This document shows, one piece after another, positions 36,176 through 64,000 of a stretch of 64,000 nucleotides of DNA. The position numbers were made by a program, and so were the translations under genes. Location: the IMG/VR virus record IMGVR_UViG_3300032283_000554, positions 1 through 64,000 of that record, one strand, 5' to 3'. Source of the DNA: a virus (lineage: Duplodnaviria; Caudoviricetes). Numbering within the stretch: position 1 is the stretch's first letter; each line of letters begins with the position of its first letter. The notes under the pieces were generated by a model. The model saw nothing but the letters and a program-made list of their open reading frames with translations. It was not told the DNA's origin and did no database searches.

Positions 36176-36934
36176 TTATTCTTGGTTTTGTTCGTGGTAC
36201 TGCTTAATGTATTCTTCTGATGGTCCACCTGGGCCTCCAACAACATACCCATCAACAAAGATAAATCCAGGAGTGATAAACTTGTCTCCTGATTTCATTA
36301 TGTGTACCTGATGCTTATAAGGATCTGTTGACGGGAATATTAATGCGCTTCCAGCCTTTGGCTTTGCAGTAAATGTAACCATATCTTTAGTTCTTGGATC
36401 TAGCGCATCATCTGGTGGTCTAAGGTGACCATTCATTTCTAATCTTAGGTCTTCTGGTCGGATAACGAATGATATCTCTCCACCTTCGTAGTCATCGTTC
36501 CAGTAAATAATAATTGACCATTCTAAGCTGTTGTCTCCAGCTTGTCTGTCAAAGTGGGCGCCCATAGCACAACCTTCAATATATTTCTGAATGCCAACAA
36601 ATGGTGATACGTTTGGAACACCCTTAAGACCTCTATCAACAATAAAAGATTCTGATATATTCTTAATAGCATTTCTAATTGTTGATATGATAAAGTCTAC
36701 ATCTTTTCTTATATCTTCATCTAAATTTTCTACCTCAGAAAGATTAAAATCCTTTTTCTTTCCAAAGATGTTACCGTCTCTGCTGCTTGAATTCCAGTTT
36801 TTCCATCTTGGAATAACCTTGTGAACTCTTTCATCAGAATCTAGCTTATTTATCAAATCAATAATTGCCTGGGGGTTCTCAATTACATCTGAATACATGT
36901 AAACATTTTCATGTAATTTTTCTTCTAGCTTCAT
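36176..36934 (-). CDS. 2OG-Fe(II) oxygenase (prolyl 4-hydroxylase-like)
   Basis: HFD...[11 protein letters not shown]...KPKAGSALIFPS...HQV...KF. Confidence 0.85.
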   Translation of the reverse strand: MKLEEKLHENVYMYSDVIENPQAIIDLINKLDSDERVHKVIPRWKNWNSSSRDGNIFGKKKDFNLSEVENLDEDIRKDVDFIISTIRNAIKNISESFIVDRGLKGVPNVSPFVGIQKYIEGCAMGAHFDRQAGDNSLEWSIIIYWNDDYEGGEISFVIRPEDLRLEMNGHLRPPDDALDPRTKDMVTFTAKPKAGSALIFPSTDPYKHQVHIMKSGDKFITPGFIFVDGYVVGGPGGPSEEYIKQYHEQNQE

Positions 36935-37677
36935 TTGTCGTTCTCCTCTATTTTATATTTATTTCCATCTAGATCTATTCGGTATCCTTCTTTTAATGCA
37001 TCTTGCCATTCTGACTTTATAACTTCCTGCTCTTCTCTAATTTTTTTCATTTCTGCATCCCAAGCGTCTATTGTTTCTTGTGGATATGATTCTGGTGACC
37101 GATCATCCCAAAATGAACCTAGAGTGTATCTTATTCCAGAAGTTATCATTGTAACCTCATGAGTATTATCAAAGCCACCTGCAAAAGATGTAAGTGTGCC
37201 AGTCTCTGGAACTAGTGTATGGTTTTGTTTATTAAATATTAGATTGCCACCTTCAAAATCATCATTTAGATACAAGAAAGCTGCGTATCTACTTCTTTCA
37301 AACGGGCCTGTGTTTCCCTGTAAGTCTGTATTATCTGAGTGTTCTTTTGCGTAAGCTCCAGGCTCCCATTTTTGAGCATGAAATCCAATCTTGTGAATAT
37401 CTGAAGAAGGCTTGTTGTGTACCTCAGCAACTGCATCAATAATCTTATTTTGAAGTGTAGAGAAAAAATCTGAAGCTAAACCAAATTGTTCTAGCTCCTC
37501 GTCACCGTCTTGTGGCAAGACAGAAGAGTATGATTCGTAAAAAGTGATTGGAGTCCATGACAATTTTTCATTTGCAACTTGAGCCTCTAAAACTTTTATT
37601 ATTGCAGAAGATTCTTCTTTTGTTAAAAAGTTTTTAAATACTAAAATATCTGCTGTTAATCTTTCTGAAGTACTCAT
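36931..37677 (-). CDS. 2OG-Fe(II) oxygenase (prolyl 4-hydroxylase-like)
   Basis: HSD...YLNDDFEGGNL...HEV...RY. Confidence 0.85.
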   Translation of the reverse strand: MSTSERLTADILVFKNFLTKEESSAIIKVLEAQVANEKLSWTPITFYESYSSVLPQDGDEELEQFGLASDFFSTLQNKIIDAVAEVHNKPSSDIHKIGFHAQKWEPGAYAKEHSDNTDLQGNTGPFERSRYAAFLYLNDDFEGGNLIFNKQNHTLVPETGTLTSFAGGFDNTHEVTMITSGIRYTLGSFWDDRSPESYPQETIDAWDAEMKKIREEQEVIKSEWQDALKEGYRIDLDGNKYKIEENDK

Positions 37678-38405
37678 TTATTTATATCTCCATCTAGTAG
37701 TGTTCTATAATATTTTTTATTTGGGTCTGGTTGATTTTCTCCAGTATGCTCTAGTATTTCCCAGAAAAATGGACAGGTGTATCTAATTGCACCTTTAATT
37801 TCAGTTACTCCGTGAATATAATTCATATCGCCTGGGAAAAAATAGGCTGCTCCCTTTTTAGGTTTAAATTGAACACCTTGTAAAGGAAAATACAATTCTC
37901 CACCTTCGTAGTCATCGTTTAAATAAAATAAACTTGAAAGGTCGTAGTATGGGAAATCATTTGGTAATCCAATATCTGGAAGCTCATGAAGCTCTTTATC
38001 TGCATGTGGTTTTTGGAACTGTCCAGGAAGCCAGCGAACAATTGTTGTTCCTGTTGGGGTCACTTTAACTTTATAGAAATCTTCAACAATTGGCTTTAGT
38101 CTTTCAAACAGACCTTGAAGAATGGGTCTAATTTCTGGATCATTTTTATCTAGAGATGGGCTTGTGCAAACTCTGTCTTTCCAGTAATTAGCATCATATA
38201 CGGTTGTACCATTTTCATTAACATGGCTTTCTGTTACATCCCAAATAGTTATTTTTCTAGCAGCTGCCTCAAGAAAATCCATCTCTTCTTGAGTCATAAA
38301 GTTTTCCAGTTCAACTATCATGTCCTTGCCATACCCAAAGAATCCAGAGGGCGTGAGAGATGGTGTCTTGTATACTACTGAAGCATCCTGATTTGTTGAG
38401 TTCAT
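37674..38405 (-). CDS. 2OG-Fe(II) oxygenase (prolyl 4-hydroxylase-like)
   Basis: HAD...[11 protein letters not shown]...HGV...RY; leaderless TGATATAAT 6 nt upstream. Confidence 0.85.
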   Translation of the reverse strand: MNSTNQDASVVYKTPSLTPSGFFGYGKDMIVELENFMTQEEMDFLEAAARKITIWDVTESHVNENGTTVYDANYWKDRVCTSPSLDKNDPEIRPILQGLFERLKPIVEDFYKVKVTPTGTTIVRWLPGQFQKPHADKELHELPDIGLPNDFPYYDLSSLFYLNDDYEGGELYFPLQGVQFKPKKGAAYFFPGDMNYIHGVTEIKGAIRYTCPFFWEILEHTGENQPDPNKKYYRTLLDGDINK

Positions 38406-38417
38406 TTTTCTATTATA

Positions 38418-39134
38418 TCATTTCTTGTCTTTAGAGGTAAGATCAGTAATCTTTAACTTTAAAGACTTTATCTCGTGGCTGCCTAGGCTATTTCCTAAAT
38501 AGTCTACTGCATCTCTATAAAAATTTGTAAATCCGCCCTTTTTAGTAATTTCGTCCCAAACTTTTTGTCTTTTTTCTCGTTCTTTTAAATCCATACCTTC
38601 AAAAACTTTGTCTTTAATTTCAAGCTCGACATTTTGATACTCTTTTAATGATATTGGAATAAAAGTAGCAACTGGCATTCCAGCTGGAATTTTAATTATA
38701 GTATTTGGCCTTGTAATTCTCCAGGCAATAGGAATTGCTTCTTTTAAAACTGAAGTTGATATTACTGTTGTAAATGGGGTTGCTCCATCAACAAAAAAGT
38801 TAGGGGGAACGATTTGTAACATTGAAACGTTTTCAGGTGTATCAAAATAGAATCCAGAATAAAAACTTATAGTAGCGTTTCCTCTTACTGTTGTGGGAAC
38901 ACCTACTGGGCCTGATAATATGGTTACATGATCTGGGGTTGTATCTGAAATTCCATCCCAAATAAACTCAATATCATCTAAAAAAGAAATTGACCAGCCA
39001 ACTGTATTTGCCAGAGAAACTGGAAAACATTTGTAGGCATGAGCATCTAAAGTATCATCCATCCAGTCTCTTTTGACTTTAGTCTGTTCAATTTTAGATC
39101 TAGTCTGGTTATTTTTATATACTGTTATTTTCAT
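38418..39134 (-). CDS. DUF6065-like protein
   Basis: RDWMD....HAYKCFP.SLAN..GW N-terminal signature; W+ITRP...G.P...FIP. Confidence 0.7.
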   Translation of the reverse strand: MKITVYKNNQTRSKIEQTKVKRDWMDDTLDAHAYKCFPVSLANTVGWSISFLDDIEFIWDGISDTTPDHVTILSGPVGVPTTVRGNATISFYSGFYFDTPENVSMLQIVPPNFFVDGATPFTTVISTSVLKEAIPIAWRITRPNTIIKIPAGMPVATFIPISLKEYQNVELEIKDKVFEGMDLKEREKRQKVWDEITKKGGFTNFYRDAVDYLGNSLGSHEIKSLKLKITDLTSKDKK

Positions 39135-39825
39135 TTACTTCATTGTCCCATTTTGGATCATACATGTCTGGAGTATGAAATTTTTTACTGTAGTCAAGCA
39201 TTGTTACTATAGAGTATTTTGTTCCCTTGGTTACCGCTTTTGCTTGATGGGCATACATAAAATTAGATGGGAAAACATATAGATCTCCAGCCTTTGGTTT
39301 AATGTCTAGATTTTGAAGTCTAAAATAAAGCCCTCCATCATCATAATCATCGTTAACATATCCTACAAGAGAAACAACACAATTGTAAGAATACCCATGA
39401 TCTTGATGCTCCATAAAATGCTGGCTTTCTCCATATTTAATAAAGTTAAAAGCTTCCCAATACTTAAGCTCCATAATATTGTGTGCTTTGCAATAATCTA
39501 CAACTGCTGGATATTGAGCATCATATACATCTTGCCACAGAGCTTTTAGCTTTTCTGCATCTTCGCTTTTGTCTAAAGCAATATCACTTTTTTTAAACTT
39601 AATATCTACACAGTCTCTATAGTCTGGCATTAGTTGTTGATAGCCAACGTATGCTGGCTGGAAAGTATATCTTTTTTCTTTAGTTCCAACTTGCCCAACT
39701 GCACCCTCAAGCCTATTAATTATATCAAGGTCTTTTTTTAAGACATCTCTGTATACAAATATTCCAGGGGCTAGCTCTTCTTTGCTGCTCCAAGTAGGTG
39801 CTGTGCTTTTAGTTTGTGTTGTCAT
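39115..39825 (-). CDS. 2OG-Fe(II) oxygenase (prolyl 4-hydroxylase-like)
   Basis: HQD...YVNDDYDDGGL...KPKAGD...FPSNFMYAH...KYS. Confidence 0.85.
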   Translation of the reverse strand: MTTQTKSTAPTWSSKEELAPGIFVYRDVLKKDLDIINRLEGAVGQVGTKEKRYTFQPAYVGYQQLMPDYRDCVDIKFKKSDIALDKSEDAEKLKALWQDVYDAQYPAVVDYCKAHNIMELKYWEAFNFIKYGESQHFMEHQDHGYSYNCVVSLVGYVNDDYDDGGLYFRLQNLDIKPKAGDLYVFPSNFMYAHQAKAVTKGTKYSIVTMLDYSKKFHTPDMYDPKWDNEVNENNSI

Positions 39826-40619
39826 TTATAATCCCTCTTTGTCCAAACTTTTGATTTATATACTCCACCGTCAGGCTGACGATAAAAATTTGCATTTTCA
39901 ACTAATCTGTCTTGCATTTCTTTTATTTTTAAATATTCAACATCGTGATCCCAATCTTCTCTTTTAAATGGAAGAATCTGTAAGAATGGTGTTCCTTTTG
40001 GAATAGTGCCTTCCCAGTCTTTTGCAATAAAAAAAGGAAATGTTCCAAGTAAGTGAACTTTATCGTTGTCAACAACACCACTTGTATTTAAAAATGGTAA
40101 ATCAAATCTATTCATTGGTGTCATAAATAATGCACTATAGCCTTCTGGAACTTGAATTCCCCATTCTGGGTACCATGCAAAATGATCTTCGTAATATCCT
40201 ATAGGCGATGGGAATTGTTCCATAGGAGTTCTTTCTGTTACAAAACTAATATGCTTTTTGTCTTTTACTTCTACAGAAATCTTTCCATTTTTATTTTTTG
40301 AAAATACTAAATCGCATGGAGTGCTTAAAACATATCCAGTCATAAATGCATCTAATATTGCTGGGCAGGCTTTCCATGTAGGAATCTTGCCAAAATCTTT
40401 TGGGTCCCCCTCTTTTGAAACAGGACATACCTCTTTTGTGGCCTTATAGTATTCACCATTTGGCATCTTTGCAAATCTATCAGCCTCTTTATACCATGCA
40501 GGTATGCTTTGCTGTGTTGGTTTTGGCACTGATGGGCTAAACTTGTTTAGCCATGGCCTAAACGATTGAAATAATATTTTAATATTTTTTCCCGTTCTCT
40601 TTGTCATGATAAAGATCAT
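39822..40619 (-). CDS. DUF6065-related (dUTPase-like fold) protein
   Basis: IPAWYK...TWKACP...GY....PCD...W.I..PEGYS.LF..P.N...SGVVD.D...FPFF...[14 protein letters not shown]. Confidence 0.6.
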
Positions 40620-41286
40620 TGTAGTCCATCATAATAACAACAGAGTACTTTGTTCCCGACTCTATATTTAAAGATGCATGCTCATAAACAAAATTAGAAG
40701 GGAAAAGAATTATGTCTCCTGCTTTTGGTTTTAAAACAAGGTCGTGTCTTGGAAATTCAATCTCTCCGCCCTCGTAGTCATCATTTAGATAAACAACTGC
40801 AGAAACTGTACATGTGTAATATGGACCATGATCAGCATGAATTTTAAAAAATTCTCCTGGTAGATATTTAACAAAGTTAAATGCTTCTTTGTAATTAATG
40901 TTAAAATTCCAAACGGACTCATAATGTCTTAGTGATTTATTTAATCCAACATCAACAATATCATAGCATTCTCTTAAAACATCACTATCTGCAAGATAGT
41001 TACCAAGCTGATCTCTTTTAAACTTTAAATCATAACAATTTCTAGCATGACTGGTTGGCTCGGCTTTAGCATTAACAGTTGCTCCGTGCCACTTTATTCC
41101 ACGTTTATCCAAAGATATTTCTTCTTCAAGCATGTTGATTAATCTTTGGCAATCTTCTTGACTAATTGCATTTCTATAAAGATTTATTCCATATTCAAGA
41201 TTTTCAACAATCATGCCATTGTCAATTTCTTTTGGTTCAACTCTTGAAGTTGTTTTTTCAATTCGTGGCAGGTCATACCATTCCAT
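40579..41286 (-). CDS. 2OG-Fe(II) oxygenase (prolyl 4-hydroxylase-like)
   Basis: HAD...[11 protein letters not shown]...[16 protein letters not shown]...KYS. Confidence 0.85.
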
Positions 41287-54989: not shown

Positions 54990-55640
54990 ATGACTACTTG
55001 GCTAAAAAAAGAATTTGAAGATAGTGGATATACTGTAGAAACTCCTATTGATGGGCTTCTTGTTGTTAAAAATTTTATAACAGAAGAAGAAATTAAGATA
55101 TACATGGATATTATTAATAACACAACTGAAGAAGAATGGGATAAGTGGTATACAGACCAGCTAAAAGTTTTCTGTAAACAAAAATTTGGAAGAGAAGATG
55201 TTGAAAATTTAGTTAAAGAAGGTTTGTACGAAATAACATCAAATTGGAACGACAAAAATCTTTCCTTTATAAACTCAGAAATTCATAGAAGAATAGATAA
55301 AAGATTTAACGACGTTCTTGAAAAATCTAAAGAGGATTTGATTTTAAGTGGGTTCTATTTTATTCAAAGAATGTACGATGGAACTCAGTTAGTTTCTCAT
55401 CATGATCAAAACACAGACGGATCAGTTCAACACGCTGCAGTTATATATATAAATAATGACTACAACGGTGGTGAAATTTTTTGGGCCCATAAGGATTTTG
55501 AAATGACTCCAGAGCCTGGTGATCTTTTATTATTTGGTGGGGATCCAGAATGGGAACACGGAGTAAGGTTTGTAACATCAGGACCTATGAGATATGTTCT
55601 TCCAGGATTTATAAAGATACCTAATTTTTACAAAAATTAA
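54990..55640 (+). CDS. 2OG-Fe(II) oxygenase (prolyl 4-hydroxylase-like)
   Basis: HHD...YINNDYNGGEI...P..GDLLLF...HGV...RY; leaderless TGATACAAT. Confidence 0.85.
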   Translation: MTTWLKKEFEDSGYTVETPIDGLLVVKNFITEEEIKIYMDIINNTTEEEWDKWYTDQLKVFCKQKFGREDVENLVKEGLYEITSNWNDKNLSFINSEIHRRIDKRFNDVLEKSKEDLILSGFYFIQRMYDGTQLVSHHDQNTDGSVQHAAVIYINNDYNGGEIFWAHKDFEMTPEPGDLLLFGGDPEWEHGVRFVTSGPMRYVLPGFIKIPNFYKN

Positions 55641-56586: not shown

Positions 56587-56736
56587 TTAGAGACCATCAT
56601 TTTCACCTTCATATAAACTTCTCAAATACTCCATATGAGCTAGCTTTTGTTCCTCAGAGCCAATTTTATGCTCTACTGGTACACCAGCCCATAGAATAAA
56701 AAAGAGGGCGGAAAGAGGAACATCATAAGCTATCAT
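56587..56736 (-). CDS. Small hypothetical protein (49 aa)
   Basis: MIAYDVPLSALFFILWAG...; TATAAT 6 nt before ATG. Confidence 0.5.
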   Translation of the reverse strand: MIAYDVPLSALFFILWAGVPVEHKIGSEEQKLAHMEYLRSLYEGENDGL

Positions 56737-56754
56737 ATTAGTATTATACTCCAT

Positions 56755-56768
56755 GTTTCACGTGAAAC
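56755..56768. promoter_or_regulatory. parS: parS site (ParB-binding palindrome)
   Basis: Perfect 14-bp GTTTCACGTGAAAC; 15/16 match to TGTTTCACGTGAAACA; intergenic. Confidence 0.8.
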
Positions 56769-56777
56769 CAATTAGGC

Positions 56778-56882
56778 CTAGATATTAAAAAATAGGAAGA
56801 TCGATATAACAAGAAAGCAAAGTGCAATAAATCTGATCTTCTTTTTTCTTGGCCATTCATCTGGCACTCTTACTTGATCCAT
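56778..56882 (-). CDS. Small membrane peptide (34 aa)
   Basis: MDQVRVPDEWPRKKKIRFIALCFLVISIFLFFNI*; AAGGAG RBS. Confidence 0.55.
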   Translation of the reverse strand: MDQVRVPDEWPRKKKIRFIALCFLVISIFLFFNI

Positions 56883-56896
56883 ATTCTACTCCTTTG

Positions 56897-56971
56897 TAGG
56901 CCTATTGGGATTTGAACCCAAAGTCGATTGCATATAAGACAATTGCTTTAACCAGATTAAGCTATAGGCCC
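56897..56971 (-). tRNA. tRNA-Ile (anticodon TAT)
   Basis: GGGCCTA TA GCTT-AATCTGGTTA-AAGC A ATTGT-CTTATAT-GCAAT CGACT TTGGG-TTCAAAT-CCCAA TAGGCCT A; full cloverleaf, no encoded CCA. Confidence 0.88.
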
Positions 56972-56976
56972 TTATA

Positions 56977-57054
56977 TTAGCCTATTATCTGGTACATAAT
57001 GCCAAGGATGAAAGTCATTACAGTTACTATGGCTATTGCCAAAAGAAGTTTCAC
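56977..57054 (-). CDS. Small membrane peptide (25 aa)
   Basis: GTG start; MKLLLAIAIVTVMTFILGIMYQIIG*; GTGA overlap with upstream gene. Confidence 0.4.
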   Translation of the reverse strand: MKLLLAIAIVTVMTFILGIMYQIIG

Positions 57055-57158
57055 TGTTCTATCCCCGTTTTTTTAAAAATTGAATCTAGGACTTCATCCA
57101 TAGAATCATCTATTGTTCTAGTATGTTGTCTTGAACAGTTTCCACATTCTCTACACAT
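57051..57158 (-). CDS. Small Cys-rich peptide (35 aa)
   Basis: MCRECGNCSRQH...; AGGTG RBS. Confidence 0.45.
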   Translation of the reverse strand: MCRECGNCSRQHTRTIDDSMDEVLDSIFKKTGIEQ

Positions 57159-57549
57159 ACTTATCACCTATTTGTCTTATATCTTTTAATACTTTATCTG
57201 GGGATATTAGATTTTAGGAAAGCCCCCCTACCCCCCAAATTTTTTCTTTTTGGAAAGATAGAGAAAGCAATTCCTGGAACATATATCAACAGATGTTATC
57301 TGGTACATATTGAGTTTCAGGGTAAGCCCCCCACAAAGCAAACTAAGTGTAGCATTTTACTTTTACCAAAGTCAATAGCTTATATAACAGCTATGTTGAT
57401 CAAGTAGTATCTTACCATATTCCCCGCCATATATTCTAGTTGACTGCTTTTTAAGATCTATGAAAATGTTAATATATTTTTTACATGTATGATACACAAT
57501 TTGGGCAAAACGGACATTTTGGATAGTGCGCCCATGTTTTAGCGTGTTT

Positions 57550-57590
57550 TGTGATGCATCTCACACGATTTTTTTGTGACTTGCAACACA
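57550..57590. promoter_or_regulatory. Tandem CRP-type sites
   Basis: TGTGA-tgcatc-TCACA (57550-57565) and TGTGA-cttgca-ACACA (57575-57590). Confidence 0.65.
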
Positions 57591-57624
57591 ATGTCCGAAT
57601 TATACGCATTTTGAATTAGACATT

Positions 57625-57646
57625 TGTCAGACCCCCATGCTATGCT
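57625..57646 (+). promoter_or_regulatory. Early promoter TGTCAG-N10-TATGCT
   Basis: First of eight identically spaced copies, each upstream of an RBS and operon start. Confidence 0.7.
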
Positions 57647-57676
57647 TAAGGTATAACAAAAAGAAAGGTGTTCAAG

Positions 57677-57823
57677 ATGAATACATTTGAAAGAATACAG
57701 AAAGAGCAAGCGGAAAAGCGTATTGCTCAAAGAATTAAGGATAAGGCTATAGTAGAGGCTATGTTTTCTAATAACCCTCGCCCTTTAAATAACGCTTACC
57801 TACTAGCAAAAGAGGAAAACTAG
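57677..57823 (+). CDS. Early microprotein (48 aa)
   Basis: MNTFERIQKEQAEKR...; GAAAGG RBS. Confidence 0.65.
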   Translation: MNTFERIQKEQAEKRIAQRIKDKAIVEAMFSNNPRPLNNAYLLAKEEN

Positions 57824-57900
57824 TGTGACTAAGGTCACAAAAATACTTTTGCGACACACCCCCCTAACCTCCCCAATTTGTCAGACCCCCATGCTACAAT
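57824..57900 (+). promoter_or_regulatory. CRP-type site + GACAC + TGTCAG-N10-TACAAT promoter
   Basis: TGTGA-ctaagg-TCACA 57824-57839; GACAC 57853; promoter 57879-57900. Confidence 0.7.
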
Positions 57901-57932
57901 TACAGAATAACAACAACGAAAGGTCAGAATAA

Positions 57933-58046
57933 ATGACACTAGATGAATACAAGCAAATGGTAGAGGCTCAACGCCTCGCCTCCCTAGCAATAGCCCTAGA
58001 GGCTTTGCGTAAGTCCGATACAATCGCTAAGGAGATGAATAAATAA
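57933..58046 (+). CDS. Early microprotein (37 aa)
   Basis: MTLDEYKQMVEAQR...; AACGAAAGG RBS; TAATG overlap. Confidence 0.6.
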   Translation: MTLDEYKQMVEAQRLASLAIALEALRKSDTIAKEMNK

Positions 58047-58228
58047 TGTCATACGCATACTCATACGAAACTAACTCAATCTCTAAATGGGATACCATTC
58101 AAGAAGATGTCGCAGACGCATACGCTTACCTTGATGAGGTAGATGAGGAACAACCTCCACTAGATGACTTCAATGATGAAGATACAGATGAACTAGCAAA
58201 ACTATACGCACTAACTTGGGAGAACTAA
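58046..58228 (+). CDS. Acidic early microprotein
   Basis: 60 aa, Asp/Glu-rich; AAGGAG RBS. Confidence 0.65.
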   Translation: MSYAYSYETNSISKWDTIQEDVADAYAYLDEVDEEQPPLDDFNDEDTDELAKLYALTWEN

Positions 58229-58230
58229 TA

Positions 58231-58380
58231 ATGACTATCACTTACTCACTATGGGACGGCGCACAATTCTTAGGTTTCTTTACCGCTACTAGCGCAGACG
58301 AAATGAATAAGGTTGTAGCAGACTTACAAAAGGTTTCTAAAAATGTTGTAGCACACATGCGAAAGGTAGAACAGAACTAA
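58231..58380 (+). CDS. Early microprotein (49 aa)
   Basis: MTITYSLWDGAQFLG...; TAATG overlap. Confidence 0.6.
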   Translation: MTITYSLWDGAQFLGFFTATSADEMNKVVADLQKVSKNVVAHMRKVEQN

Positions 58381-58571
58381 TGACTATTGAACTAAATGAA
58401 TACGGCTTCATGTTTGACATGGGTGATTTTATTTACCTATCCCTATCATGGGCTTTCCTTATCTTGTCCTCCGTTGTTTTTATCGGTTATAAGATTTATA
58501 AGAGAGTGCAAGCACATAGATGGGCATCACTAGTAAAGAATGAACTATCTACAGATGAATGGGGTATCTAA
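58380..58571 (+). CDS. Early membrane microprotein
   Basis: 63 aa with one hydrophobic segment. Confidence 0.6.
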   Translation: MTIELNEYGFMFDMGDFIYLSLSWAFLILSSVVFIGYKIYKRVQAHRWASLVKNELSTDEWGI

Positions 58572-58690
58572 TGAATAGACTACTAACTACTCTAGTGCAA
58601 TTAGCCCTTATCGTTCCCGCCCTTATCATGGGGCGCATGATGTGGCGCGAGATCGTAGCCGACTATAGAGAGTGGGCTAACTCACACTAG
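58571..58690 (+). CDS. Early membrane microprotein (39 aa)
   Basis: MNRLLTTLVQLALIVPALIMG...; TAATG overlap. Confidence 0.55.
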   Translation: MNRLLTTLVQLALIVPALIMGRMMWREIVADYREWANSH

Positions 58691-58697
58691 CCTAACG

Positions 58698-58896
58698 GCG
58701 TGTCGGCTTGACATTGTCAAGCTGGCCCGCAAAAGAGCGGGGTTATCCACAGGGTTACGGGGGTTATCCACAACCCCCAGGATTTGCAAGCACGACACGC
58801 CCGAGATCCGTGTGAGTTTTATCACATGACTTGAGCGTCTCACATCATGGACTTACTCGCTAGTAGTTATCTTTTGTCAGTGGTATCGGCTATAAT
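58698..58896 (+). repeat. Intergenic regulatory module, copy 1
   Basis: Two hairpins; DnaA boxes 58743-58751 and 58764-58772; GACAC 58794; CRP 58811-58826; promoter 58875-58896. Confidence 0.85.
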
Positions 58897-58950
58897 TGCG
58901 GTATAACGAAAAACAGGCGGTAAAGAAATCCGCTACGAAAGGTGGTCGAA

Positions 58951-59127
58951 ATGACTACAATAAACACACTATGCAAGGCGCATGAGCCTCTTGTTTCTGC
59001 TATCTCCGAAATTGGAGATGAACAATTTACACTGTGCATGATTTGCGATAGCAACATTGAGCGTTACTACTACGATAGTGACCCTGAGCAATTTCCTACA
59101 TGGACAGATTGGTATGTGACTAAATGA
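58951..59127 (+). CDS. Early Cys/His microprotein
   Basis: Start set at MTTINT (ACGAAAGG RBS); CxxH...CxxC. Confidence 0.6.
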   Translation: MTTINTLCKAHEPLVSAISEIGDEQFTLCMICDSNIERYYYDSDPEQFPTWTDWYVTK

Positions 59128-59246
59128 GTATTTGGACAAGGTTCGCTACTGTAAGCGATTACCCTAAAGGTATGATGAACGAATGCGTGTGTGGGCAAGT
59201 AGTCCTCGCACCTAAGACACGACATGAGAATTGCGAGAATAAATAA
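59124..59246 (+). CDS. Early microprotein (40 aa)
   Basis: MSIWTRFAT...CVCG...HENC; ATGA overlap. Confidence 0.55.
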   Translation: MSIWTRFATVSDYPKGMMNECVCGQVVLAPKTRHENCENK

Positions 59247-59410
59247 TGAGTACTTTTGTACCAATTAAATCCGTATGTGGTGCGGTATCCACCACAATAG
59301 ACATGTATGACTATGAGTTAAATCCTCATGGCGTTATCTGTTGCGATAATTGCGAAAGCATTTTGTTATGCCGTAAGGCGTGGGACTTTCTTTATAAGGG
59401 GAATAAATAA
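59246..59410 (+). CDS. Early Cys-rich microprotein (54 aa)
   Basis: MSTFVPIKSVCG...ICCDNCE; TAATG overlaps. Confidence 0.6.
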   Translation: MSTFVPIKSVCGAVSTTIDMYDYELNPHGVICCDNCESILLCRKAWDFLYKGNK

Positions 59411-59550
59411 TGCCAGTTTTTAATTTTGATTTATCCGTTACTGTTGAGGCAGATGATTTTGAGTCTGCCTTATCATGGTTAAAGGTTATTCCATTGGAAC
59501 GCCTTGATTTTATTGTTGTCGATTATACAGAATTAGAGGTTAGCGAATGA
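59410..59550 (+). CDS. Early microprotein (46 aa)
   Basis: MPVFNFDLSVTVEADDFESA...; overlapping start/stop. Confidence 0.55.
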   Translation: MPVFNFDLSVTVEADDFESALSWLKVIPLERLDFIVVDYTELEVSE

Positions 59551-59741
59551 AATCACAATTAGAAAAAGATTTAGAAATTAAAGAAAGTTTTATTGATTTA
59601 CTAAATGATGTTTATCCAACTGTAAAAATTGGTTACTCTACTTTTACTCCCGCCGAAATTCTAGAGTGTTGCGACCCTGTTGCTTTTGCGATTGGTTTAG
59701 TAGAACATGAAGATTATTTAACAGAAATGGAAAATGAATAA
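59547..59741 (+). CDS. Early microprotein
   Basis: 64 aa; F.D.LND.YP.VKIG..TF.P..IL...DP.AF. Confidence 0.65.
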   Translation: MKSQLEKDLEIKESFIDLLNDVYPTVKIGYSTFTPAEILECCDPVAFAIGLVEHEDYLTEMENE

Positions 59742-59842
59742 TGGAAAAAGATATTTTTGGTTTTGCAGATGCAATTGAAATTGAATTGATCAATGAAGAA
59801 AATTTAAAAATTGTTGAATTAATTTTTAAAGATTTTAAATAA
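59741..59842 (+). CDS. Early microprotein (33 aa)
   Basis: MEKDIFGFADAI...; TAATG overlap. Confidence 0.45.
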   Translation: MEKDIFGFADAIEIELINEENLKIVELIFKDFK

Positions 59843-59851
59843 ATAAATCGT

Positions 59852-60048
59852 GGCGGTTCGACATTGTCGAGCTGGCCCGCAATATTGCGGGGTTATCCAC
59901 AGGGTTACGGGGGTTATCCACAACCCCCAGGATTTCCGACACGCCCGACACGCCCGAGATTTTGTGATTTTTATCACACGGCTTGAGCGTCTCAAAATGT
60001 GGAATTACTGGCTAGTAATTATCTTTTGTCAGTGCTATCCGCTATAAT
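59852..60048 (+). repeat. Intergenic regulatory module, copy 2
   Basis: DnaA boxes 59893-59901 and 59914-59922; GACAC x2 at 59938 and 59947; CRP 59963-59978; promoter 60027-60048. Confidence 0.85.
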
Positions 60049-60080
60049 TGCTACTATCAACAAACGAAAGGTGACAACTA

Positions 60081-60293
60081 ATGTCAGCAAATGTCTATAC
60101 AATAGAAAGCCTACTTGTAGGAAAAACTTATCACTCACGCACTTTAACAGGCGAAATTATTGACGCAGAAAAGTCTGATGTCTTTTATGGCAGAGGCTTA
60201 GAAAGTTATCGGGTTCAGGTTCGCCCACACTATCCCTCAGTATTTAATCTAAAAGATACTTATCGCTATCTATCAGTTAAGGTCGGTGACTAA
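60081..60293 (+). CDS. Early microprotein (SH3-like beta fold possible)
   Basis: 70 aa; AACGAAAGG RBS. Confidence 0.65.
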   Translation: MSANVYTIESLLVGKTYHSRTLTGEIIDAEKSDVFYGRGLESYRVQVRPHYPSVFNLKDTYRYLSVKVGD

Positions 60294-60457
60294 TGATTAA
60301 AGAATACTTACACGAAACCGAATTTTATTTTGTCAAAGATGAAATAAAAATCTGTTGTGATGAACAACAATTTATCCATGTCTGTAAAGCGCATGGCGAG
60401 CAACAAGGTTGCTACTTTTGCGAATTTAACCCTTATGAGAATTGCGAGTGTGAATAA
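60293..60457 (+). CDS. Early Cys-rich microprotein (54 aa)
   Basis: CCDE...CKAH...CYFC...CEC; TAATG overlaps. Confidence 0.6.
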   Translation: MIKEYLHETEFYFVKDEIKICCDEQQFIHVCKAHGEQQGCYFCEFNPYENCECE

Positions 60458-60600
60458 TGATTAACTCAGTATTAACAATAGATTGCCAAGATTGCTTTGG
60501 TCACGGAGTAATCTTTTTTGGTAATGATAATGATTTCGATTGCGAACCTTGCGATTGTGTAAATGACGGCTCACTATTTTGGAACGGAGAAAATAACTAA
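60457..60600 (+). CDS. Early Zn-finger-like microprotein (47 aa)
   Basis: CQDCFGHG...CEPCDC; TAATG overlaps. Confidence 0.6.
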   Translation: MINSVLTIDCQDCFGHGVIFFGNDNDFDCEPCDCVNDGSLFWNGENN

Positions 60601-60806
60601 TGTATAAACTAACTTGCGCTTATGACTCAAATGCTCCGCATTGGTCAGCGGAATACGAAAACGAATTTGGTGCTTGGGAAAACTTTTTCCTATTTACCGA
60701 TTGGGGATTTGCTGATGAATACGCAACTGTAAATCTTTACACACCTAGCGGAAAATGCCACACGAAAATATTTTATCGTGAAGGCAGAAGGGTCGTAATT
60801 AAATGA
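60600..60806 (+). CDS. Early microprotein
   Basis: 68 aa ORF in operon. Confidence 0.65.
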   Translation: MYKLTCAYDSNAPHWSAEYENEFGAWENFFLFTDWGFADEYATVNLYTPSGKCHTKIFYREGRRVVIK

Positions 60807-60961
60807 AAACTTTTGAATTTCTAACTTACATAAATGTAGAAGCAGAAAATTATGATGAAGCCATAGATGTATTTCAATTTCAATTAAAATACGGAATAAA
60901 TAAAGATAATGTCTATGTCGCAGACATAACAGATTTAACTATCGAAAGCGTAGAGGTATAA
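60803..60961 (+). CDS. Early microprotein (52 aa)
   Basis: MKTFEFLTYINVEAENYDEA...; ATGA overlap; resembles 59410..59550. Confidence 0.55.
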   Translation: MKTFEFLTYINVEAENYDEAIDVFQFQLKYGINKDNVYVADITDLTIESVEV

Positions 60962-60965
60962 AAAA

Positions 60966-61157
60966 ATGATGACAAGAAAAGATTATGTCGCGGTTGCAGA
61001 AATTTTAAATTATGCAAGCGATAAAACTCATCCCGCTGTATTTTCTAAAATGGTAAATGATTTCGCTGAAATGTTTGCGAAAGATAATGAGCGATTTGAT
61101 GTAAAGCGATTTCATGAAGCGAGTGGGTATCATGTCCCAAAACTCACTACGAGATAA
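60966..61157 (+). CDS. Early microprotein
   Basis: MTRKDYVAVAEIL...FAKDNERFD..RF..A. Confidence 0.65.
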   Translation: MMTRKDYVAVAEILNYASDKTHPAVFSKMVNDFAEMFAKDNERFDVKRFHEASGYHVPKLTTR

Positions 61158-61263
61158 AGTAAAGCGAATTCAGGAATTGCGTCGCAGTAATGCGGCGCAA
61201 CCTGTTCGCAATAAGAAAAAATATTTTCGCAAGATCAAGCACAAAAATAAAATTGCAGAGTAA
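61132..61263 (+). CDS. Basic peptide with ArfA-like motif (43 aa)
   Basis: MSQNSLRDKVKRIQELRRSNAAQPVRNKKKYFRKIKHKNKIAE*. Confidence 0.5.
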   Translation: MSQNSLRDKVKRIQELRRSNAAQPVRNKKKYFRKIKHKNKIAE

Positions 61264-61391
61264 TGCATAGTTATGCAGGCCCGCAATACTGCGGGGTCGG
61301 GCGTGTCGTTACGGGTGTGATTAAAATCACCCTGGATTTTTGTTAAAGCTCTCGGCGTGTCTTAGATAATGTCAGCCCATTCTGCTATACT
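61264..61391 (+). repeat. Intergenic regulatory module, partial copy (no DnaA boxes)
   Basis: TGCATA-gt-TATGCA and CCCGC...GCGGG hairpins; GTGTC at 61303 and 61357; TGTGA-N6-TCACC at 61316; promoter 61370-61391. Confidence 0.7.
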
Positions 61392-61420
61392 TGCCATTCA
61401 ACTAACGAAAGGCTCATCCC

Positions 61421-61531
61421 ATGGATTTCTATGATGACTACTATGAAACAGATATGCTACGCCCTGACGCTAAGTCATGCTATTGCAAGGTCAATTTAAT
61501 TTGCACTAATTGCGCGGAGAGTTATAACTAA
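61421..61531 (+). CDS. Early Cys-rich microprotein (36 aa)
   Basis: MDFYDDYY...CYC....ICTNC; AACGAAAGG RBS; TAATG overlap. Confidence 0.55.
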   Translation: MDFYDDYYETDMLRPDAKSCYCKVNLICTNCAESYN

Positions 61532-62253
61532 TGACTAAACTAAAACGATCTAACGATAGAAAGGTGGCTAACCTTGTCACAAAAAACGGAAAGCAAGCGG
61601 CAATTGCCAATACTTTTGGATTACCCGCAGGAAAAGCATATTCATGTCCTGGAGCGACTAGCATATGCGAAAGTGTTTGTTATGCTGGGAAACTTGAAAA
61701 AGTATTCCCAACAGTAAAAGTTAATCTATTACACAATTGGGAACTATTGCGTAATGCTGATTACTTAACCATGCTTAATCTGATATCTGAGATGATTGAT
61801 GAATTCAAGGCTGACTGTGTAAAAAAGAATGCGCCTATGCTATTCCGCATTCACTGGGACGGCGATTTCTTTAATGATACTTATACTACTGCATGGTCTG
61901 ATGTAATTAAACTTAATGATGATGTGCAATTTTGGGTTTACACCCGCGTTAAGTCTGCCGCGCTTATTCTTAAGGATATATCTAACCTATCTCTTTACTA
62001 TTCAACGGATGATGACAATAAGGAGATAGGTCATGAACTAAAAAAGAATGAGGGTATCCGTCTTGCTTATCTAGGCAAGACATTTGCCGTAACAGAAGAC
62101 ACAATGAAAGAATTGACGGGCAAGCCTGGCGCTAAGTGTCCTGAGAATATGAAAAGCATTCCGCTAATTAGCAATGCGGGATCTGCATGCGTGTCATGCG
62201 GTTTGTGTGTTTACGGGAAAGCGGATATTAGATTTTCTGCAACTAAAAAATAA
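61531..62253 (+). CDS. GP88-family (radical-SAM-like Fe-S) phage protein
   Basis: FGLPAG..YSCPGAT..C...CYA...FRIHWDGDF...FWVYTR...NLSLY.S.D...CP...C..C.LC. Confidence 0.7.
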   Translation: MTKLKRSNDRKVANLVTKNGKQAAIANTFGLPAGKAYSCPGATSICESVCYAGKLEKVFPTVKVNLLHNWELLRNADYLTMLNLISEMIDEFKADCVKKNAPMLFRIHWDGDFFNDTYTTAWSDVIKLNDDVQFWVYTRVKSAALILKDISNLSLYYSTDDDNKEIGHELKKNEGIRLAYLGKTFAVTEDTMKELTGKPGAKCPENMKSIPLISNAGSACVSCGLCVYGKADIRFSATKK

Positions 62254-62258
62254 ATTGC

Positions 62259-62422
62259 AGCGTGTCGGCTTGACAATGTTGAGCTGGCCCGCAATATTGC
62301 GGGGTTATCCACAGGGTTACGGTGGTTATCCACAACCCCCTGGAATTTGTGAGATTAATCACAAAATAAATTAGATAAAGCTTGGGCGTGTTGCATAATT
62401 TGTCAGTGGCATAGTCTATAAT
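62259..62422 (+). repeat. Intergenic regulatory module, copy 3
   Basis: DnaA boxes 62305-62313 and 62326-62334; CRP 62348-62363; promoter 62401-62422. Confidence 0.85.
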
Positions 62423-62451
62423 ACTCTTATACCAACAACGAAAGGCAATAA

Positions 62452-62655
62452 ATGAAAATAGAACATAGTCTAAAGTTTGTTACAGAGTTTAAGGAAGGCC
62501 ACCCTATAACTACACAAATGAAAATGCTTGATGAAGGCACTCGCGTAATAATGCTAGAGTCACTACTAAAAGAATTAGTCGGTAGCCGACTACAACCTAT
62601 CCTTGATGAAATAAATGAAAATGGCTCATACGCAATTCTAAAGGTGGCAGAATAA
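62452..62655 (+). CDS. Early microprotein
   Basis: 67 aa; AACGAAAGG RBS. Confidence 0.65.
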   Translation: MKIEHSLKFVTEFKEGHPITTQMKMLDEGTRVIMLESLLKELVGSRLQPILDEINENGSYAILKVAE

Positions 62656-62927
62656 TGGGATACACAACAGCGTTAGACTTATCAGAAAACTTAGACATAA
62701 CACTAGAACAGGCAATCGGTTATCACTTACAGGGTAATCACTATCCACCCGTTCCGCTTTCTATGGTGCAACCTTGCATTGATGCTATTGATGCTATTCA
62801 TGCGGGTGATGGCGATACGCCAATAGCACTTCCTGAAGGTGTTAAATACAAGGATCGAACAACAGCACCCGCGTGGGCAATCGCTGAGCAGCACCACTTA
62901 GAAGCGTGGCTACCTGAGTGTGACTAA
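62655..62927 (+). CDS. Hypothetical protein
   Basis: 90 aa; HL.GNHYPPVP...C..AI...HHLEAW. Confidence 0.7.
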   Translation: MGYTTALDLSENLDITLEQAIGYHLQGNHYPPVPLSMVQPCIDAIDAIHAGDGDTPIALPEGVKYKDRTTAPAWAIAEQHHLEAWLPECD

Positions 62928-62994
62928 GGTCACACAATAATTATCTCAAATGCTGAGACAGGGCTAGACTAATGTCAGACCCAAATGATACAAT
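62919..62994 (+). promoter_or_regulatory. CRP-type site + TGTCAG-N10-TACAAT promoter
   Basis: TGTGA-ctaagg-TCACA 62919-62934 (identical to 57824); promoter 62973-62994. Confidence 0.7.
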
Positions 62995-63023
62995 ACTAAC
63001 CTAACAAAGAAAAGAGGCAATAA

Positions 63024-63206
63024 ATGACAATCAACGACAAGTTGTACCAAGTAGGGGATTTATTCACTACACTAAAGTCAAAGAAAACAGGTGTGATTAA
63101 GGAAATCCACCCACAGGCATCTGGCTCGGTGCGTGTGCTACTAGAAATGCCAACGAAAGAAACTCGTTGGACTTCGGTATCCGCTCAAACGCTACTAGGC
63201 GTATAA
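63024..63206 (+). CDS. Early microprotein (SH3/KOW-like)
   Basis: YQVGDLF...KTGVIKEI...VRVLL...RWTSV. Confidence 0.6.
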   Translation: MTINDKLYQVGDLFTTLKSKKTGVIKEIHPQASGSVRVLLEMPTKETRWTSVSAQTLLGV

Positions 63207-63231
63207 TCTAAAGGCAGGTGGGTCGCAGAAA

Positions 63232-63253
63232 TGTCAGACCCACCTGCTATAAT
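63232..63253 (+). promoter_or_regulatory. Early promoter TGTCAG-N10-TATAAT
   Basis: Eighth copy; overlaps an 11-bp inverted repeat at 63214-63247. Confidence 0.7.
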
Positions 63254-63299
63254 TAAAACTTAATAAACCCACTAAACCCACAACGAAAGAAGGCAACAA

Positions 63300-63722
63300 A
63301 TGGCACGACAGAAAGCAATTAGCGTTAAAATCGCAACACCAAAGGTAATCAAGGCACTCGAAACTGCACTAGCAAAGTTAGAGGCAGATTACGCATCACA
63401 AGAAGCAAACGAAGCAAAGTATCAGAAATTGCATGAGAAATGGATTAAGGAACTTTCAGCCTATGCGGTGGAAAACATCAAGAAGGCAGAAAACTTCCGT
63501 ACTAACTATCGCTCATGGAATAACACTCTAAACATTGACTTCGATTTGACAGTATTAGCAAAGGATTTGCCAACAGAGCCTGAAAAGGATTTCGAGTCAA
63601 TTTCTCTCTATAACTATCGTGAGCAGAAAGAGGAAATCTCTAATGCTATTCGTATTCTAAAGATGACAGATGAGGAAGTAGTTAGCACAAGCACTTACAA
63701 TGCGGTTGCTCGTTACCTCTAA
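63300..63722 (+). CDS. Hypothetical protein
   Basis: 140 aa; AACGAAAGAAGG RBS. Confidence 0.75.
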   Translation: MARQKAISVKIATPKVIKALETALAKLEADYASQEANEAKYQKLHEKWIKELSAYAVENIKKAENFRTNYRSWNNTLNIDFDLTVLAKDLPTEPEKDFESISLYNYREQKEEISNAIRILKMTDEEVVSTSTYNAVARYL

Positions 63723-63792
63723 ATAATCCAACAACCTGAGTATGTTGCTAAACTGCTCTCCTTTCGGGGACAACTACTAACAAAGGCAAATA

Positions 63793-64000
63793 ATGAAAAA
63801 TCGTTTCAGAGTAGAAATCTATGATGCAAACAAGAGTAATGATGTAACAATTTATTCAGAGCAAGGTGTAGATAAAGAATACTTAACTGAGTTAGCATTC
63901 TCTAATAGAGGAAATTTCTTAGGTGATGTACGTGCTTATGTCTATGATACTTTAAAGAAGACTAAAACAACTGCTCTTTACCTCCCGTCCGAAGTTATTA
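63793..64000 (+). CDS. Hypothetical protein (runs off window)
   Basis: MKNRFRVEIYDANK... open to 64000; AAAGG RBS. Confidence 0.6.
   Translation, partial: MKNRFRVEIYDANKSNDVTIYSEQGVDKEYLTELAFSNRGNFLGDVRAYVYDTLKKTKTTALYLPSEVI

Follow-up and report, generated by a model that had tools for sequence, protein, structure and literature searches.

Sigma appropriation by phages is exemplified by the middle promoters of T4, in which a MotA box at -30 acts together with AsiA. T4-type phages are also said to carry promoter-early-stem-loop (PeSL) cassettes, a description credited to Arbiol et al. in 2010. On the bacterial side, chromosomal clusters of DnaA boxes (datA of E. coli, and those of B. subtilis) titrate or inactivate DnaA. 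Here we describe a locus with likenesses to each of these systems, a series of short regulatory cassettes between small genes in the virus record IMGVR_UViG_3300032283_000554; the window in what follows is the first 64 kb of this 82.5-kb record, whose completeness is estimated at 69%. The cassettes combine a run of hairpins, paired DnaA boxes, a palindrome of the type bound by CRP and a promoter that closely resembles those dependent on the actinobacterial activator PafBC.

Two published systems bear most directly on this arrangement. Promoters of the PafBC (RecA-NDp) type lack a -35 and have the motif tGTCgg(N10)tA(N3)T, the 5' part of which, known as the '-26 element', spans -23 to -28; the GTC is strictly conserved across actinobacteria, and PafBC with single-stranded DNA (ssDNA) inserts between the DNA and region 4 of sigma-A (Muller et al., 2021; PMC8635444). 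Marine T4-like cyanophages carry NtcA-type promoters, 1-16 per genome, which were read as exploitation of the host stress response (Sullivan et al., 2010; PMC3037559). For the present locus, a sequence-only reading of positions 56754-63253 had proposed either a cis logic board that gates early genes on host state through sites for DnaA, ParB, CRP and WhiA, or an oriC-mimicking array that titrates these regulators.

A promoter pattern resembling PafBC-type promoters

The small genes are preceded by a promoter pattern that reads TGTCAG (rarely TGTCGG), exactly 10 nt and then TAnAAT, often with TG two bases ahead of the -10 and with no -35. Window counts were compared with the expected number and with 100 shuffles; by this measure TGTCRG-N10-TAnnnT occurs 10 times in the window where 0.97 are expected, a number that 0/100 shuffles reached. 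The whole record contains 15 such sites followed by a ribosome site and ATG, all of them on the + strand (57625-70194) and none on the - strand. Four near-complete relatives (110-117 kb) have 14-17 promoter sites each, all on one strand, against 0-4 per strand for a control pattern, and all but 1-2 sites per genome fall within a stretch of 9-11.4 kb. The wider set of relatives used throughout consists of 80 of 284 contigs found with the DUF932 gene, at 92-98% identity. In 80/80 of these contigs the motif is confined to the gene strand, with 4-13 copies per locus and 0 on the other strand.

Alignment of upstream regions by their ribosome site, without reference to the hexamer, places the GTC precisely at the PafBC spacing in 471 of 535 unique regions, compared with 0-42 for shifted registers; the hexamers of this set were TGTCAG (422) and TGTCGG (34). 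A sigma-70 scan for canonical -35/-10 promoters gave no enrichment (23 found vs 24.3 expected), and a position matrix of the sequence upstream of the hexamer showed just three A/T positions.

From the short spacing the promoter was first read as an analogue of the T4 MotA box, a reading that was given up after a scan of 301 Actinomycetia genomes. The pattern proved rare in these genomes, 23 of which have one match each, and all of the matches formed one motif, TGTCAGTG(G)-N7/8-TA(G/A)AAT, which led us to re-identify the promoter as one of the PafBC / RecA-NDp type. No other part of the cassette is as informative as this putative hybrid promoter, which has a -26 element but lacks a -35; in the sequence-only reading it had been labelled just 'promoter', and its identity was missed even though TGTCRG-N10-TAnnnT is the published motif. 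Two other candidates were rejected, a Bacteroidetes-type or sigma-54 promoter on the basis of the spacing, and an N4-like hairpin promoter, which the hairpins had brought to mind, since the giant 4572-aa protein of this phage is its tape measure and ordinary -10 elements follow the hairpins.

CRP-type palindromes upstream of the promoters

Perfect copies of TGTGA-N6-TCACA occur six times in the window (57550, 57824, 58811, 59963, 62348 and 62919; 0.05 expected, 0/100 shuffles), and two further sites, at 57575 and 61316, have one mismatch each, which agrees with the earlier count. In the relatives, a CRP site with at most one mismatch is present within 125 nt upstream in 441 of 672 unique promoter contexts, and after shuffling in 1/672. 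The half-sites are fixed, and 73 distinct spacers separate them among 207 distinct sites.

The distance from the centre of the palindrome to the hexamer is 35.5-37.5, 45.5-47.5, 54.5-57.5, 67.5 or 78.5 bp in 38 of 41 spacer families, which were defined by grouping spacers by sequence and are not fully independent of each other. Measured from the promoter, the CRP sites of these 38 families thus follow the series 36.5 + n x 10.5 bp, and Rayleigh R for a period of 10.5 bp is 0.77. Judged from the sequence, such phasing is what would be expected of a factor that has to approach the polymerase on a single helix face.

At the left end of the array, the palindrome TGTGATGCATCTCACA (57550..57565) is centred 67.5 bp before the TGTCAG at 57625 and is followed by the near site TGTGACTTGCAACACA (57575..57590, 1 mismatch), the second of a tandem pair, at which relatives have a perfect site (classes 42.5 and 67.5). 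The palindrome TGTGACTAAGGTCACA occurs twice, at 57824..57839 with its centre 47.5 bp before the TGTCAG at 57879, and at 62919..62934 with its centre 46.5 bp before the TGTCAG at 62973. The promoters downstream of these sites are on the + strand and belong to the ACCC subtype, with the form TGTCAG-N10-TATGCT at 57625..57646 and TGTCAG-N10-TACAAT at 57879..57900 and 62973..62994; a fourth promoter of this subtype, TGTCAG-N10-TATAAT (63232..63253, +), lacks an upstream CRP site.

Anatomy of the cassettes and their DnaA boxes

The transcription units of the small genes are separated by stereotyped cassettes of 150-260 bp, which begin after the stop codon of the preceding gene run. The full order is a GACACGCC box, hairpin 1, hairpin 2, DnaA box 1, the spacer GGnTTACG with 4-5 variable bases, and DnaA box 2 within the last hairpin, followed by GGAWTTT, sometimes 1-2 more GACACGCC boxes, the CRP palindrome, 20-50 bp of unconstrained sequence, the promoter, a leader of ~20-40 nt that ends with AACGAAAGG, and the ATG. 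The order of hairpins, DnaA pair, optional GACACGCC, CRP site and promoter, as given in the sequence-only reading, is found in each of the full cassettes (58.7, 59.9 and 62.3 kb). A check of its conservation had been suggested there, and the same order recurs in the 80 related contigs; among their 40 commonest architectures, the DnaA box lies upstream of the CRP site, and the CRP site upstream of the promoter, in 142 of 146 unique contexts with both.

Full cassette 1 (58691..58950, +; 87-nt repeat family D1) fills the gap that separates the stop codon of a gene run from the start codon downstream. It opens with a GACACGCC box on the - strand (58697..58704, reading GGCGTGTC on the + strand), followed on the + strand by hairpins 1 (GCTTGACA-T-TGTCAAGC) and 2 (CCCGC-N6-GCGGG) at 58706..58741, by DnaA box 1 (TTATCCACA, 58743..58751) and by the terminator-like hairpin 3 (GGGGGTT-ATCCAC-AACCCCC, 58759..58778), which contains DnaA box 2 (58764-58772) and precedes AGGATTT. 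A second GACACGCC box (58794..58801, +), the CRP-type palindrome TGTGAGTTTTATCACA (58811..58826, centred 56.5 bp before the TGTCAG at 58875) and the PafBC-type promoter TGTCAGTGG-N7-TATAAT (58875..58896, +) complete the cassette.

Full cassette 2 (59842..60080, +) has hairpins, DnaA boxes at 59893-59901 and 59914-59922, GACACGCC boxes at 59938 and 59947, a CRP site at 59963-59978 and its promoter at 60027-60048. Full cassette 3 (62254..62451, +) has hairpins, DnaA boxes at 62305-62313 and 62326-62334, a CRP site at 62348-62363 and its promoter at 62401-62422. In a variant cassette (61264..61420, +), which has a hairpin, a GACACGCC box on the - strand (61300-61307) takes the place of DnaA box 1, the near-CRP palindrome (61316-61331) itself forms the putative terminator hairpin before TGGATTTTTG, and a second GACACGCC box (61354-61361, - strand) precedes the promoter (61370-61391, TATACT). 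The array extends beyond the right edge set by the sequence-only reading and beyond the 64-kb window: a fourth cassette at 64.07-64.24 kb of the record has two inverted DnaA boxes (64095, +, and 64118, -) and a CRP site at 64138, a further CRP site lies at 65583, and promoters continue out to 70194.

The RNAs of the cassettes fold better than shuffled sequences, with z-scores of -3.4 (cassette 1, three strong hairpins and one weak), -3.5 (cassette 2), -2.9 (cassette 3) and -5.1, and of -1.7 for a degenerate copy. Both from copy to copy and from relative to relative, the hairpin arms differ through paired changes and G-U changes, and hairpins 1 and 2 stay paired with different sequences in each family (e.g., CCCGC/GCGGG and CCCCT/AGGGG), which argues that they act as structures, most simply as terminators or as protectors of RNA ends. 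Apart from 61316-61345, the tail of the last hairpin is just GGAWTTT, and because this run of T is short, a consensus terminator scan did not list the hairpins. RNAalifold gave no useful consensus on 47 cassettes, as hairpins 1 and 2 differ in sequence and loop length between families, and the arms were then read directly.

The six perfect TTATCCACA boxes that had been noted in the window (58743, 58764, 59893, 59914, 62305 and 62326, all on the + strand) compare with 0.78 expected, and 0/100 shuffles reached six. In the relatives, slot 1 holds a perfect box in 103 of the 106 frames with a DnaA-type 9-mer, next to 3 nt that vary. Slot 2, preceded by 4-5 hypervariable nt, holds a perfect direct box in 52 cases; inverted boxes are perfect in 20 cases and carry one mismatch in 39 (mostly TTTTCCACA). 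The sequence of box 2 is therefore kept in either orientation and the hairpin rebuilt around it, which argues that the 9-mer is selected in its own right, in addition to the hairpin.

Pairs of perfect boxes 21-23 bp apart, made of the same 9-mer that marks oriC in candidate hosts, could in principle be phage replication origins that recruit host DnaA, with the other motifs as ordinary promoter furniture, and the boxes do adjoin active promoters, as in transcription-activated origins. We regard this as very improbable: the boxes occur only in pairs flanked by G+C-rich hairpins, no A+T-rich unwinding stretch is adjacent in the sequence, and the four near-complete genomes (3-7 perfect boxes, nearly all in the early segment) have no DnaA-box cluster elsewhere. 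Close relatives, moreover, have anything from 2 to 8 boxes in varying orientation, and in 30 of 174 unique frames a GACACGCC box stands where box 1 would be. For the same reasons, namely pairs beside G+C-rich hairpins, the lack of an unwinding element, and variable number and orientation, the oriC-like array of the earlier proposal did not materialize.

The cassettes might alternatively serve mainly as recombination substrates that shuffle small genes, like the T4-type cassettes of promoter and stem-loop, with the motifs as baggage of recent duplication. Copies are indeed 90-92% alike within one genome, the gene content between cassettes differs among relatives, and elements within the frame replace one another. 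In lake RNA libraries, cassettes are joined directly in single contigs (58713 to 61279; 61339/59963) that skip the genes between, a weak observation of one contig each with short sides that would fit cassette-to-cassette recombination among relatives. As the sole explanation, recombination appears highly improbable, since duplication does not account for invariant 9-mers and half-sites beside hypervariable flanks and 73 spacers, for phasing across 41 unrelated spacer families, or for the register of 471/535 promoters; shuffling and regulation are compatible, and it is only as the complete account that this alternative fails. That the sites are conserved beyond duplication follows from the same pattern in the 80 related contigs, in which the DnaA 9-mer and the CRP half-sites are fixed and the flanks and spacer vary.

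Candidate binding proteins in phage and host

Searches of the record and its four near-complete relatives for Crp-HTH, DnaA domain IV, ParB_N, sigma-70 region 2 and WYL domains found none, and each of these searches did give matches in control genomes. Likewise, none of 30 early open reading frames (ORFs) has a Pfam DNA-binding domain and 27 of the 30 are without any family; the three above the cut-off are GP88 and, beyond the window, DUF932 and DUF1281_C, to which one weak match to DUF7230 can be added. Because the phages encode none of the DNA-binding domains searched for, host proteins are the simplest candidates for binding the cassette motifs.

To see what such hosts could offer, we consider five small single-contig Actinomycetia genomes (1.4-1.5 Mb; the loci read have 46-52% G+C). 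Upstream of recA, three of the four genomes in which this region was read have TTGTCAGTGG-N7-TACCTT with an SOS-box-like palindrome directly after it, and the fourth has CGTCAGTGG and a TGTCAGCCC site. In a fifth genome, the metagenome-assembled genome (MAG) G005, recA has AGTCAGACC-N..-TAGCTT, which resembles the second promoter subtype of the phage. The carD gene of the candidate genomes also has a PafBC-type motif, and TGTCRGTG-N8-TAnnnT occurs 30 times in the five genomes, compared with 3 for the reversed control. Each genome encodes two adjacent WYL-domain ORFs of 304-343 aa, the arrangement of PafB and PafC, and one Crp; the one that was compared matches M. tuberculosis CRP (3d0s, 3mzh) with E 7e-77 and has an identical recognition helix. 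In all five, TTATCCACA clusters at the ends of the circular contig (the oriC region), and exactly two parS sites, of the same variants as in the phage lineage, lie a few kb from the contig end. Judged from these five candidate genomes, such hosts show every matching part, as far as gene and motif content can tell.

A different possibility is that the motifs are operators for the phage's own, unrecognised small DNA-binding proteins, that TGTCRG is read by a phage sigma adaptor like T4 MotA/AsiA, and that the likeness to host sites reflects convergence or competition. Novel binders could hide among the 27 ORFs without a Pfam family, perfect CRP palindromes are nearly absent from the candidate host genomes, and promoters of the ACCC subtype differ from the form usual in hosts. 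Yet three unrelated motifs match the host consensus letter for letter, the hexamer with its three following bases (TGTCAGTGG) is the recA promoter element of the candidate hosts, and the five phage records lack any Crp, DnaA, WYL or sigma domain. Moreover, the hexamer is present from the first promoter onwards, so that a phage activator would need to be injected. Taken together, we find phage-encoded readers of these sites rather unlikely.

The host genomes also allow site numbers to be compared, which bears on the proposal that the array is a decoy, soaking up DnaA, CRP, PafBC and ParB as the phage multiplies and blunting the damage response, initiation and segregation, with gene control as a secondary matter. 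One phage genome holds 8 perfect DnaA boxes vs 5-14 per candidate host genome, 8 perfect CRP palindromes vs 0-1, 15 PafBC-type promoters vs 4-9 (TGTCRGTG form) and 1 parS vs 2, and additional GACACGCC boxes have a TGTCG core but no -10, all of which would suit a sponge. The strict order, the fixed register of the -10 and the helical phasing of the CRP sites are, however, needed for gene control and not for titration, and the numbers of DnaA boxes and parS sites vary widely between close relatives; a role mainly in titration thus seems doubtful to us.

A model for host-gated early promoters

On balance, and with modest confidence, we favour a model in which the early promoters are gated by host PafBC and tuned by CRP, with the DnaA boxes as an accessory input. 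The hairpin run of a cassette would most likely end the upstream transcript, and the hybrid promoter would restart transcription. This promoter would be usable by actinobacterial RNA polymerase only with PafBC, activated by ssDNA and placed between sigma-A region 4 and the -26 element. In a first step, host PafBC would license the whole region, and the cell's alarm for foreign or damaged DNA would serve as the ignition of the phage. In a second step, host CRP with cyclic AMP (cAMP), bound to the perfect TGTGA-N6-TCACA on the same helix face at 36.5, 46.5, 56.5 or more bp upstream of the hexamer, would tune the output to the energy state in a class-I-like manner. Host DnaA, bound to a single TTATCCACA box or to a pair of them within or next to the putative terminator hairpin, would provide a third and dispensable input, which may modulate read-through or report the replication status. 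The motifs, their order, spacing and conservation, and the parts present on the host side are what we observe, and from these we infer each binding event and its sign. The earlier logic-board proposal, of a cis-acting device that would read the state of the host, is supported in part by anatomy, conservation and phasing; its central input is most likely PafBC and not the four factors named at the time.

A more far-reaching version combines control with titration. In this version, ignition of the region would be handed to the SOS-independent activator PafBC and integrated with cAMP-CRP and DnaA, and the multiplying sites (per copy 15 PafBC elements, 8 CRP, up to 8 DnaA and 1 parS) would outnumber those of the host and drain its regulators, so that the damage response, replication initiation and segregation collapse without a protein effector. 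We consider this combination unlikely.

Several observations weigh against the gating model set out above. The five candidate genomes were chosen from a class-wide sample for small size and presence of the motif, and are not linked to the phage. Of the 15 promoters in the record, 5 or 6 read TGTCAGACCC or TGTCAGCCC in place of the TGTCRGTG form of most host sites, and 326 of 635 unique promoter contexts are without any upstream motif. As PafBC needs ssDNA, the firing of the very first genes is hard to account for. Three of the 41 CRP spacer families, at 41.5 and 42.5 bp, depart from the helical phase, and perfect CRP palindromes number 1 in the five candidate genomes (the control also gives 1), which means that the phage sites, lacking a host counterpart, could belong to another protein. 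The replacement of box 1 by GACACGCC in the relatives, where the number of DnaA boxes is itself inconstant, implies that the DnaA input is dispensable. A phage factor that mimics PafBC, or a novel phage protein, may be the actual binder.

A further argument on this side comes from Streptomyces phage Angela (ON970591.1). Like the phage studied here, Angela has a homologous DUF932 gene, a run of small genes split by cassettes of hairpin plus promoter, and the same non-coding block at the edge of the region; the DUF932 gene (335 aa, to the right of the array) is 52% identical to Angela gene 2, and the search reported the homologue at two places in the Angela record. The cassettes of Angela consist of a hairpin, a TGTC...GACA palindrome and a promoter. 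Despite the common layout, the promoters are ordinary -35/-10 promoters (TTGnnn-17-TAGAnT), unlike the PafBC type seen here. The 13-kb early region of Angela lacks CRP palindromes and, instead of paired boxes, contains only one DnaA-like box, TGTGGACAA; the Angela genome as a whole has no excess of the PafBC motif (4 vs 3 in the control). Since Angela has the cassettes but ordinary promoters and no CRP palindrome, the wiring to host regulators is, on the evidence of these sequences, a derived trait of the freshwater lineage.

Other short elements

A parS-like palindrome, TGTTTCACGTGAAACC, is located at 56754..56769, ahead of the array, and matches the canonical chromosomal-type parS, the 16-bp palindrome tGTTTCACGTGAAACa, at 15/16 positions (expected number 0.00). 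The site itself, as claimed in the sequence-only reading, is thus present, but it is not a general part of the array: variants occur in just 9 of the 46 relatives that cover the region, which makes parS an accessory, sporadic element. The palindrome adjoins the ATG of a 55-aa ORF (56587-56754, - strand) that has no ribosome site and may be leaderless or no gene.

GACAC is the WhiA motif, and eight of its 13 copies in 56754-63253 are intergenic as previously counted (57853, 58700, 58794, 59938, 59947, 61303, 61357 and 62262). The assignment to WhiA is weak, as the 5-mer is not enriched in the window (54 found vs 70 expected). The real repeated unit is the 8-mer GACACGCC, with 6 copies in the 82.5-kb record, all inside cassettes; this conserved unit is a longer box without a known binder.

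The left edge of the early region is marked by a conserved non-coding block with the elements AAAATGTTAATAT ... TGTATGATACA ... GATAGTGCGCCCAT on the + strand. The block (57462..57535; L089 2066-2150) aligns with the relatives and with Angela, and the palindrome TGTATGATACA is invariant. It is conserved at the DNA level in spite of proteins that are only ~50% identical between this phage and Angela, and it holds, besides this palindrome, the extended -10-like TGTTAATAT and the sequence ATAGTGCGCCCAT. It could be the first promoter recognised by the host, an operator, or a boundary of a terminal repeat or of packaging. A second short box, AA(A/T)CGGACAT (57508-57518 in the window), recurs upstream of promoters in this lineage and in the Angela cassettes; it has no known binder and may be the site for a conserved phage protein.

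The phage and its genome

The structural genes of the phage, including portal, protease and capsid, occupy the - strand from 1 to ~53 kb. The tape measure protein (9585-23303, - strand) has 4572 aa, with PhageMin_Tail (PF10145) at residues 239-438; this is unusually long and, as tail length usually tracks the length of the tape measure, suggests a very long tail. Seven consecutive ORFs of similar size (235-265 aa) lie on the - strand at 36176-41286, and the idea that these ~240-aa ORFs at 36-41 kb are tandem paralogues was dropped after the pair compared proved not alike (E 2.9). Three ORFs (54990-55640; L008 9116-9652; L008 11586-12386) match PHROGs of the 2OG-Fe(II) oxygenase or endonuclease type and a radical-SAM-like ORF is found at L008 16206-17204, an auxiliary set that resembles that of aquatic phages.

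Small genes on the + strand form a run from 57.6 kb to ~71 kb of the record. In the window, ~28 of them (36-240 aa, 57677..64000, +) are served by the cassette promoters, each with a short leader and a AACGAAAGG-type ribosome site. Streptomyces phages of the BE cluster (Stanwilliamsviridae) carry an early region of small genes in a long terminal repeat. From the homology to the Angela region and the gene layout, the label of an early, host-takeover-type region appears fair for the run at 57.6-71 kb. The phage protease is 46% identical to that of the Streptomyces BE-cluster phages and phage Coruscant, and a nucleotide search with the region and one cassette found no match among isolated phages.

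An actinobacterial host is supported by WhiB, encoded in 4/4 near-complete relatives, and by the structural and early genes in common with Streptomyces phages. The only match to the WhiB of the relatives in the genome collection (59% identity) is on a 57-kb contig of an 'Aquiluna' MAG (L092; G005 contig C2), which also has a diverged RecA-like gene and may therefore be phage DNA that was placed in the MAG bin. The G+C content of 32-43%, together with the presence of parts of the stretch or related sequence as contigs in three lake-water metatranscriptome runs, points to low-GC freshwater actinobacteria. These contigs cover the cassettes thinly, to which no significance is attached. From the sequence features above, we take the phage to be an uncultured lake actinophage and a distant relative of the Streptomyces BE-cluster phages.

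Comparison with known systems

Adaptation of sigma by PafBC is known only from host repair genes. A literature search on PafBC or RecA-NDp together with phage promoters, actinophages, mycobacteriophages and infection returned no report of PafBC-type promoters on a phage in the text available from its sources, and a search that combined DnaA boxes, phage genome and titration found no paper. The relation of pafBC to mycobacteriophage resistance, the subject of a paper in ACS Infect Dis (2025) that is cited in PMC12848934, could bear on the novelty. If the gating model is true, an abundant lake phage lineage would use the cell's alarm for damaged or foreign DNA as a start signal, in combination with the energy and replication status. 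The cassette of 250 bp, with its many natural variants, would be a compact natural test-bed for the joint action of PafBC, CRP and DnaA on one promoter, and the motifs could offer a way to link uncultured phages to actinobacterial hosts without CRISPR.

Several of the likenesses concern single elements. Like the chromosomal clusters of the datA type, the cassettes hold perfect DnaA boxes outside an origin, but here just as pairs, in putative phage terminator hairpins and with no accessory sites known, and any effect on DnaA is hypothetical. With the PeSL cassettes of T4-type phages they have in common the repetition of short regulatory units between small ORFs, a plastic early region and signs of cassette-to-cassette recombination. 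The arrangement differs in that the stem-loops come first and the promoter follows, and in that three or four distinct host-factor motifs are under selection. In the middle promoters of T4, as proposed for the cassettes, a substitute upstream box accompanies the -10 in place of a -35 and is recognised through an adaptor that connects the DNA with sigma region 4. The T4 adaptor is encoded by the phage, whereas no phage candidate was found here and the box matches the host's own PafBC element.

The closest match in promoter structure is with the PafBC/RecA-NDp promoters, which have the same 22-nt layout of tGTCgg, 10 nt and tA-N3-T, with no -35, an invariant GTC and A or G at position 5 (PMC8635444); the phage hexamer lies at the place that would correspond to -28 to -23. 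The phage differs from host PafBC promoters in having 14-17 copies in ~10 kb of a lytic-type phage, in front of small genes and not repair genes, with most copies paired with a CRP site; dependence on PafBC is a prediction. For the use of a host CRP-family regulator by a phage, the NtcA promoters of cyanophages are the nearest precedent, since there too phage genes carry sites for a global regulator of this family (PMC3037559). Unlike the cyanophages, with their other regulator and host phylum, the phage described here has a perfect CRP palindrome phase-locked to a second host-factor promoter element, and DnaA boxes in addition.

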